DNA of 64,000 nt from a bacterium (GCA_030428205.1 JAUIBK010000007.1:46749-110748), one strand, 5' to 3'; numbered from the stretch's first letter, positions 18,026 through 18,868 are shown. Numbers and translations: made by a program. Notes: generated by a model from the sequence alone, not told the origin.

Positions 18026-18868
18026 TTATTCTCCAGCTAAACGGTTTACGTACTGCACCATCTTCTCAGGAATATTCACCCCTGTTGGCTCAATACTGTG
18101 CTTAAATTCAATCGTATAGTTCACATCATTTACGAGATATCCTGCCTCTGTCTCAAATATGTCGACAGAAACAATCTCACCACCTACTGCTTTTGCTGCA
18201 CGGAGCGACACCTCAGCGAGCTCTGGAGTTACCTCATGTTTTTCGTACTCTGCGCCTTTGCTTACATCAGCGATCCAGTGATCGCCCTTTCGAGAAATAG
18301 CAGCCACACACTCATCAGCAACAACAAACGTACGCAAATCTCGCTTCATCTCCACGAACTTTTGCATATAGAAGACTGAGTGATGAAACGAGCCCAAAGT
18401 TGTCTTGTGCTCCATGAACGATTCAGCAGCGAAACGATTATCCGCCTTTGCAAGAAGTTTTCCCCAAGAGCCAATAGCAGGCTTAAAAACAACGGGATAC
18501 CCAAGCTCATCAATAGCTGAAAGAGCTGATTGCTCTGTAAAAGCAACTCGCACATCTGGCTGAGGGATATCGTTTTCGTTTAAGACCGCTGAGGTTAGAA
18601 GCCTATCACCACAGACCTCAGCACAATATGCAGAGTTAATACATCTGACACCACGGTTCTCAAAGAGCTGAAGGGCATTCATCGCTCGACCGTGATGGAT
18701 ACACCGTTCAAGAATAAAGTCTACATCGATCCACTTATCCTCAAGATCAAAGACGAGCTTTCTATCATCGAGCATCACAATCTCGTGCTCAGGATACTTC
18801 TCAAACTCTTCTAAGAGGAGTTTTTCATCTCTACGAATCAGGGAGTGTAAGAAACCAATACGAGCCAT
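18026..18868 (-). CDS. Diverged LysX/ArgX-family ATP-grasp ligase (second paralogue)
   Basis: Likely start ATG 18868 ([16 protein letters not shown]), TAATG-coupled to lysX; KPAIGSWG kept, but GDR, AAISR, HWIADVSKG and VNDVNYTIEFKH differ from the first copy. Confidence 0.8.
   Translation of the reverse strand: MARIGFLHSLIRRDEKLLLEEFEKYPEHEIVMLDDRKLVFDLEDKWIDVDFILERCIHHGRAMNALQLFENRGVRCINSAYCAEVCGDRLLTSAVLNENDIPQPDVRVAFTEQSALSAIDELGYPVVFKPAIGSWGKLLAKADNRFAAESFMEHKTTLGSFHHSVFYMQKFVEMKRDLRTFVVADECVAAISRKGDHWIADVSKGAEYEKHEVTPELAEVSLRAAKAVGGEIVSVDIFETEAGYLVNDVNYTIEFKHSIEPTGVNIPEKMVQYVNRLAGE

Follow-up and report, generated by a model that had tools for sequence, protein, structure and literature searches.

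Sulfolobus uses two ligases, LysX and ArgX, which share LysW, LysZ, LysY, LysJ, and LysK (Ouchi et al. 2013, in the summary given by PMC12998189; the ArgX structure is 3VPB). Specificity in the family follows a signature of five residues (182/192/203/258/259), which reads F-I-T-NS in LysX enzymes specific for aminoadipate (AAA), I-Y-V-GF in ArgX, and Y-I-T-NA in bifunctional enzymes (PMC12998189). Engineered variants of Thermus thermophilus LysX needed several mutations to accept glutamate (PMC12998189), and the same paper describes T. thermophilus LysZ and LysY as accepting LysW-Glu intermediates. The EDWGE tail of LysW is recognized by a GSWGR motif, and a conserved Arg and a conserved Ala contact the substrate (PMC10433800). 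[quoted passage not shown] ADP is contacted by Lys-141, Glu-178, Ile-180, Phe-210, Ser-212, and Asn-213 in the Pseudomonas enzyme (PMC10092738), and the nucleotide contact of this Asn/Ser pair (Asn-213 and Ser-212) is also described in PMC10375531.

We analyzed a window of 64,000 nucleotides (GCA_030428205.1, JAUIBK010000007.1:46749-110748) from a bacterial genome of 3.76 Mb, which is 92% complete and related to MAGs labelled Bdellovibrionales by NCBI. Profile searches of the window ORFs reveal a seven-gene operon on the minus strand in the order lysW-lysX-lysX'-lysY-Ntn hydrolase-lysZ-lysJ, with the following features.

19828..19992, minus strand: lysW, a 54-aa zinc-ribbon amino-group carrier protein with the C-terminus EDWGE (TIGR01206, 72 bits; PF21344).
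19741..19760, minus strand: a terminator-like GC hairpin (7 pairs, 6 of them GC) followed by T6 (TTTTTTG), within the 114 nt that separate lysW from copy 1.
18868..19713, minus strand: copy 1, a canonical LysX (TIGR02144, 340 bits; signature F-I-T-NS).
18026..18868, minus strand: copy 2 (lysX'), a divergent LysX paralogue (TIGR02144, 279 bits; signature F-I-V-HS).
16978..18024, minus strand: a lysY/argC-type reductase (TIGR01850, 399 bits).
16337..16972, minus strand: an EgtC-like Ntn (N-terminal Cys) amidohydrolase (weak TIGR03442 match, no Pfam match).
15549..16340, minus strand: lysZ, a [LysW]-aminoadipate/glutamate kinase (NF010659, 237 bits).
14398..15549, minus strand: lysJ, a [LysW]-semialdehyde aminotransferase (TIGR00707, 457 bits; NF042418, 474 bits, under the equivalog cut-off of 700).

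No tailoring or secondary-metabolite genes are found within the operon, and no lysine or other riboswitch was detected upstream of lysW at Rfam gathering thresholds. The hairpin in the lysW/copy 1 spacer may act as an attenuator or partial terminator, raising the ratio of LysW to enzyme. Between lysW and a DUF167-like gene lie two small overlapping genes (163 and 58 aa; 20077-20734, minus strand). Neither occurs on the syntenic contig of a related MAG, where lysW directly follows the DUF167 gene; the pair looks like a small insertion and is possibly toxin-antitoxin-like. At its end, the window contains a 5S rRNA gene (62965-63075) and the 3' end of a 23S rRNA gene (63603-64000), both on the minus strand.

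The two ligase genes had been predicted to form a tandem, coupled ATP-grasp pair, and this arrangement is borne out. The stop codon of copy 1 and the start codon of copy 2 overlap in TAATG, with GGAGG upstream, and lysY starts 1 nt from the stop of copy 2. The copy 1 ORF spans 18868-19737, and its start codon is probably the ATG at 19713 (MKVGFLHS...); copy 2 starts with the ATG at 18868 (MARIGFLHS...) and encodes 280 aa. Both products score above the LysX equivalog cut-off of TIGR02144 (275.6 bits), and both contain LysX_preATP_grasp and RimK domains (PF22626 and PF08443 in copy 2). They share 56% sequence identity. Copy 1 is 69-74% identical to LysX proteins from Ignavibacteriota, Gammaproteobacteria, and others, and it retains all family-invariant ATP/Mg and LysW-binding residues. 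The motifs originally quoted for the two proteins are exact in the sequence: two stretches of 17 and 11 residues in copy 1, and CGDR, AAISR, WIADVSKG, and NDVNYTIEFKH in copy 2.

We compared copy 2 with its best 120 matches from a search of 5.8 billion proteins. Among these, CGDK is present in 118, NE[VI]NYTME[FY] in 117, and AAIYR and WITNTAxG in nearly all. The variant states CGDR, AAISR, WI[AS]D[VI]S[KR]G, and NDVNYTIEF are found only in copy 2 and in one other of these 120 proteins, P0002, which is its orthologue (88% identity). P0002 is encoded on a 1.3-kb contig (L016), where its gene is flanked by the C-terminal part of a copy-1-type gene and by the beginning of lysY, and the tandem arrangement is thus present in a second organism. 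The contig of a sister MAG (GCA_020434525.1) ends inside copy 1, and peptide-pattern searches of 185,579 species genomes returned no further copy-2-type genes.

Copy 2 carries the changes K89R, R137K, D144N, a deletion of Gly-176, Y193S, T201A, N202D, A204S, A235S, E249D, M254I, and N258H (residue numbers are those of T. thermophilus LysX, mapped through the 3VPD alignment). In an alignment with 222 canonical relatives, it differs at about 28-29 of the 131 columns with ≥95% conservation, and copy 1 at 8. Eight of the columns changed in copy 2 (K89R, R137K, D144N, the Gly-176 deletion, I179L, N202D, A204S, and E249D) are also invariant in T. thermophilus LysX, Thermococcus kodakarensis LysX/ArgX, and Sulfolobus tokodaii ArgX. 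Asp at position 202 or 249 occurs in none of 105 diverse family representatives, drawn from 50%-identity clusters, and in none of the 222 close relatives; Arg at position 89 is found in four and Lys at position 137 in two of the 105. The motif differences of copy 2 are far beyond chance.

Copy 2 is selectively maintained under strong purifying selection. Its dN/dS against P0002 is 0.04 (dS ∼2), compared with 0.03 for copy 1 against a related MAG and 0.06 for the LysY N-terminus. The two orthologues are 95% identical at family-conserved columns and 81% identical at other columns, and they share the same new residue at 23 of 29 changed conserved columns. An AF2 model of copy 2 (pLDDT 88, pTM 0.88) closely matches Thermus LysX (3vpd_A; TM 0.92, r.m.s.d. 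is 1.9 Å, ∼40% identity), and the phmmer E-value against T. thermophilus LysX is 4.6e-66. The original prediction had allowed for relaxed selection and pseudogenization, of which a dN/dS of 0.04 gives no sign. A decaying duplicate, or incipient pseudogene, would account for altered invariant residues and for a TIGR02144 score barely over the cut-off (279 versus 275.6 bits), but the reading frame is intact in two organisms at this dS and dN/dS, translational coupling is conserved, and the model is confident; we find this explanation hardly credible.

We next turned to the origin of copy 2. Copy 2 and P0002 form a pair with 100% support on a long stem (0.69-1.04 substitutions per site, versus 0.32-0.40 for copy 1). 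In a family-wide tree, the pair lies inside a bacterial clade with 98-99% support, all other members of which have the signature F-I-T-NS, and is distant from StArgX and from other groups with Val or Ile at position 203. With copy 2 nested in the F-I-T-NS clade, the change of Thr-203 to Val/Ile arose independently and not through an acquired ArgX. An independent origin had been among the options proposed for copy 2, and its placement within bacterial LysX, apart from archaeal ArgX and RimK, agrees with that proposal. In a careful maximum likelihood tree, copy 2 joins P0009/P0045 and copy 1 joins P0125/P0176, and these are different LysX subclades. Forcing the two copies to be sisters costs 7 log-likelihood units and is not rejected (AU p = 0.40). 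The quick and careful trees and the AU test are compatible both with duplication in place and with acquisition of copy 2 from the subclade of P0009/P0045. The remaining genes of the operon go with copy 1: for example, identities to Melioribacter roseus are 73% for LysY, 73% for LysW, 70% for copy 1, and 60% for copy 2.

The N-terminus shared by the two copies had been taken to suggest a duplication within this lineage. However, GFLHSLIR(K/R)(D/E)EK is the N-terminal consensus of the whole bacterial LysX clade (>150 of 233 sequences) and is therefore uninformative on this point, and we reject the motif as evidence of a recent duplication. The original prediction thus holds in what it observed, and its interpretation is supported only in part. 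Gene conversion between the copies was also rejected (with saturated dS and a third-position identity that stays at 0.2-0.65 along the whole length), as was recent horizontal transfer by composition (the GC of copy 2 is 0.448 and its GC3 0.416, like its neighbors).

Within the invariant ATP/Mg set of Lys-89, Lys-129, Asn-202, Asp-237, Glu-249, and Asn-251, copy 2 keeps Lys-129, Asp-237, and Asn-251 and alters the other three (K89R, N202D, and E249D). We take Lys-89, the Lys of the GDK motif, to be the phosphate-binding Lys of ATP-grasp enzymes, and Glu-249 is presumably the Mg ligand of their ExN motif. The Lys to Arg and Glu to Asp replacements had been noted originally, and N202D now joins them. 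Because RimK Ser-212 and Asn-213 align with LysX Thr-201 and Asn-202, T201A and N202D can be assigned to the nucleotide site, with residue roles drawn from RimK papers and secondary descriptions. All changed catalytic positions stay within their chemistry class (Lys to Arg, Arg to Lys, Glu to Asp, Asn to Asp, and Ala to Ser), and as the swaps are conservative, function would still be possible. We find no radical loss of ATP/Mg-binding residues such as would mark a pseudo-ligase; the replacements are similar and fixed in both orthologues. Presumed dead family members among the 105 representatives have Gly, His, or Ile at position 202 and Ser, Ala, or Lys at position 249. Arg-180 is retained in copy 2 (DLR). 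The substrate-contacting Arg and Ala probably correspond, by position, to Arg-194 and Ala-204; copy 2 keeps the former and replaces the latter by Ser, and GSWGR becomes GSWGK in both orthologues.

LysX-family enzymes are oligomeric. Copy 2 could be a weakly catalytic or non-catalytic partner that forms a hetero-oligomer with copy 1 and acts in LysW docking or regulation, its ATP/Mg site being detuned. Four nucleotide/Mg residues are altered (K89R, T201A, N202D, and E249D), among them Asp-202 and Asp-249, seen in no other family member surveyed, and the RimK equivalents of residues 201 and 202, Ser-212 and Asn-213, contact ADP. The tight translational coupling, which favors equimolar synthesis of the two proteins, and the Lys in the LysW-recognition motif GSWGK would also suit a partner subunit. 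However, the chemistry class is kept at all catalytic positions and the new states are fixed in both orthologues, whereas presumed dead paralogues show radical losses instead. Lys-129, Arg-180, Arg-194, Asp-237, Asn-251, and the GSWG loop are intact, and the most remodelled region is the amino-acid pocket, which would be unexpected for a scaffold. We therefore regard a partner role as unlikely, if worth keeping in mind.

The specificity residues read F-I-T-NS in copy 1, F-I-V-HS in copy 2, and F-I-I-YS in the orthologue P0002. Copy 1 thus carries the AAA-specific LysX signature, from which copy 2 departs by T203V and N258H. The divergence strikes published specificity positions (203 and 258; PMC12998189) and the putative substrate-contact residue Ala-204 (PMC10433800). 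Identity between the two copies drops to 35-40% over codons 191-215, which include the substrate loop, compared with 60-80% in the flanks, and three further changes surround the HSR motif of the N-domain (N58H, S60G, and H64N). Taken together, these alignments describe copy 2 as a protein with a remodelled putative amino-acid pocket and a conservatively re-tuned ATP/Mg site.

A redundant isozyme, using the substrate of copy 1 and kept for other regulation (such as feedback insensitivity) or for another metal or nucleotide preference, would explain why operon, carrier, and fold are common to both copies and why three of the five signature residues (Phe-182, Ile-192, and Ser-259) are unchanged. 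A single T203V variant of T. thermophilus LysX retained AAA activity (PMC12998189), which also speaks for shared specificity. Against this stand the long stem of copy 2, its excess of changes over copy 1 at columns that are at least 95% conserved, the clustering of these changes in the substrate loop, and the fact that invariant pocket residues are rarely altered in isozymes. We consider a redundant isozyme distinctly improbable.

With the ArgX signature, copy 2 agrees at one of five residues (203 only); Phe-182, Ile-192, and Ser-259 are LysX-type, and His/Tyr-258 is new. The NVALG-type motif originally given for ArgX is found in S. tokodaii ArgX (3VPB), which reads WRANVALGG. The Val at the Thr position had been called ArgX-like, and the likeness reaches further, to Ala/Ser at position 201 and Ser at position 235, which are rare or absent in members with Thr-203. 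Among 70 representatives with intact catalytic residues, Ala/Ser-201 occurs in 11 of 21 with Val/Ile-203 versus 1 of 40 with Thr-203, and Ser-235 in 4 of 21 versus 0 of 40. The ArgX-type states in copy 2 are Ala-201 (Ser in the orthologue), Val-203 (Ile in the orthologue), and Ser-235. LysX-type states are kept at positions 182, 192, 200, 205, and 259, and Ser-193, Asp-202, Ser-204, and His/Tyr-258 are peculiar to copy 2. At positions 201, 203, and 235, copy 2 has thus changed convergently toward the ArgX-type ligases.

The peculiar states could alternatively indicate an active ligase that charges LysW with a third substrate, neither Glu nor AAA, for example a shorter or differently functionalized amino acid, which would give the operon an extra product. 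The pocket of Val/Ile-203, His/Tyr-258, Ser-193, Ser-204, and Asp-202 is unlike the characterized F-I-T-NS, I-Y-V-GF, and Y-I-T-NA types, and the combination occurs in none of the 70 catalytically intact representatives. The bulkier side chains at 203 and 258 point to a smaller pocket, the added negative charge at 202 could disfavor a carboxylate there, and the genome has no evident aminoadipate supply. On the other hand, there is one LysW and one downstream LysZ/LysY/LysJ set, with no sign that these downstream enzymes handle other chain lengths; the operon is free of tailoring or secondary-metabolite genes; and Arg-194, the substrate-carboxylate binder of the family, is kept. A third substrate thus seems quite unlikely to us. 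Equally doubtful is that copy 2 represents a new class of carrier ligase, in which a rebuilt Mg/phosphate site (Asp-202 and Asp-249, with Arg-89) and a new pocket (Val/Ile-203, His/Tyr-258, Ser-193, and Ser-204) would serve a substrate other than Glu or AAA. If this were true, a LysW operon of primary metabolism, without aminoadipate supply, would yield an additional, as yet unknown diamino-acid product.

We tentatively favor, at somewhat less than even confidence, the reading that copy 2 is a functional, independently evolved LysW ligase, which most likely loads glutamate as ArgX does. On this reading, copy 2 descends from the bacterial aminoadipate-type LysX clade and was re-tuned by a burst of change. 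It keeps the parts for LysW docking and acyl-phosphate formation (Arg-180, Arg-194, Lys-129, the GSWG loop, Asp-237, and Asn-251) and would form the acyl-phosphate on the C-terminal Glu of LysW. The amino-acid pocket is altered by T203V/I, N258H/Y, Y193S, and A204S, together with N58H, S60G, and H64N, and four residues of the ATP/Mg site are swapped conservatively (K89R, T201A/S, N202D, and E249D). Copy 2 would then load glutamate, and the single LysZ/LysY/LysJ/Ntn-hydrolase set would make ornithine for ArgG and ArgH, with copy 1 retaining the ancestral aminoadipate specificity. We infer the activity of copy 2, its amino acid, and the action of Asp-202 and Asp-249 as a rearranged Mg/phosphate site from sequence comparison.

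The glutamate reading is favored by purifying selection, conservative swaps, an intact fold, divergence of the substrate loop, and convergence on ArgX; by the coupled tandem arrangement, which is conserved next to P0002; by the precedent of T. thermophilus LysZ and LysY for promiscuity in the downstream enzymes; and by a gene content of argG-argH without ArgJ, ArgB/ArgC paralogues, or homocitrate synthase. It is weakened by the match at one of five ArgX signature residues, a signature that fails to transfer between lineages, as seen for Natrinema gari ArgX (PMC10433800). It is further weakened by K89R, N202D, and E249D, which are not needed for a switch between Glu and AAA, as ArgX keeps Lys, Asn, and Glu at these positions. 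The three changes could lower catalysis.

Preference for glutamate over other substrates rests on comparative genomics, with the completeness of the assembly as a caveat. By tblastn, the whole genome encodes a single LysW; a weak match on another contig was rejected as a second carrier for copy 2, being an unrelated zinc ribbon that lacks the EDWGE tail. No LysZ/ArgB paralogue was found by tblastn in the 92%-complete assembly, nor were ArgJ, LysK, homocitrate synthase, or lysA, and lysY is the only ArgC-family gene. The pair argG-argH is present. LysX occurs in 9 of 124 species genomes of the phylum, and two ligases occur only in the genome studied here. Each of the eight other LysX-bearing genomes has two ArgC-family matches (LysY and a separate ArgC), compared with one in our genome. 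The only two-ligase genome is the one with LysY alone, a pattern consistent with the acetyl-dependent route having been replaced by a LysW route that includes a new Glu ligase. A related genome of the same family that lacks LysX (G002) encodes ornithine carbamoyltransferase (OTC) and argH and has no TIGR01850-type ArgC match at E ≤ 1e-20; it may use another ArgC type or a different route.

The gene-content argument is weakened by the missing OTC: in the 92%-complete assembly, the sole carbamoyltransferase match is pyrB, located beside pyrC. The relative G030 combines a W-X-Y-Ntn-Z-J operon with a canonical cluster of argC, an OTC-like gene, and argB, plus argG and argH. An assembly gap of our genome probably conceals at least one arginine gene, whose OTC-like counterpart in G030 is flanked by argC and argB. 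A single gap could therefore hide a canonical arginine cluster, which would remove the gene-content argument for a glutamate ligase. A homocitrate synthase orthologue is missing in six of the nine LysX-bearing genomes (G000, G030, G086, G062, G063, and G064), and lysA is missing in G000 and G030. A LysW operon in the absence of homocitrate synthase is thus seen in five further genomes of the phylum, all of which nevertheless retain a separate ArgC. The substrate of the canonical ligase in this group is thus itself uncertain, which counts against the glutamate reading.

The M. roseus operon has the order W-HCS-X-Y-Ntn-Z-J, and the inclusion of homocitrate synthase (HCS) suggests that the ancestral role of operons of this type was lysine synthesis via aminoadipate. 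The Ntn gene is present without an operon lysK in our genome, in G030, in M. roseus, and at a further related locus (L024), whereas three operons (G006, G001, and G003) lack the Ntn gene and carry lysK downstream of lysJ. Across the six related operon loci compared, an Ntn hydrolase and LysK never occur together, and the EgtC-like Ntn hydrolase is presumably a carrier-release enzyme that replaces LysK.

To our knowledge, Sulfolobus is the only case in which two loading enzymes have been demonstrated experimentally to divide one carrier pathway between lysine and arginine. Here, a second, re-specialized ligase appears to have emerged independently from a bacterial LysX lineage of the aminoadipate type, in a genome from which the acetyl-dependent ArgB/ArgC route has seemingly disappeared. 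Such a case would provide a natural experiment on the switching of pathway specificity at the loading step, and copy 2 complements the engineered T. thermophilus LysX variants. What sets copy 2 apart is that invariant catalytic residues have been rebuilt conservatively along with the pocket. The pairing of N202D with E249D, at two positions that are otherwise invariant in the family, is unusual and offers a test of how far the Mg/phosphate site of an ATP-grasp enzyme can rearrange and yet work. The practical scope is narrow, as the class is known from two sequences.

Among structurally defined enzymes, AAA-specific T. thermophilus LysX (1UC8, 1UC9, and 3VPD) is the best match of copy 2. The two proteins have the same domain architecture and conserve Arg-180, Arg-194, Lys-129, Asp-237, and Asn-251; copy 2 differs in its signature (F-I-V-HS) and by K89R, R137K, N202D, A204S, and E249D. 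[quoted passage not shown] N. gari ArgX is a Glu-specific LysW/ArgW ligase with a signature unlike that of Sulfolobus ArgX, from a genome without aminoadipate synthesis genes (PMC10433800), and it demonstrates that different residue sets can confer Glu specificity. Unlike copy 2, it is archaeal, is the only ligase, and keeps the invariant catalytic residues. Sulfolobus ArgX likewise keeps Lys-89, Asn-202, and Glu-249, which are altered in copy 2, and copy 2, of independent origin within the bacterial F-I-T-NS clade, matches it at only one of five signature residues. Our locus further differs from Sulfolobus in its bacterial host, in its tandem ligase genes, and in release presumably by an Ntn hydrolase instead of LysK. 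Copy 2 nevertheless resembles Sulfolobus ArgX in Ala-201, Val-203, Ser-235, and a small residue at position 193, and the two systems have in common two paralogous ATP-grasp ligases that accompany a single carrier protein and a single set of enzymes for the downstream steps.
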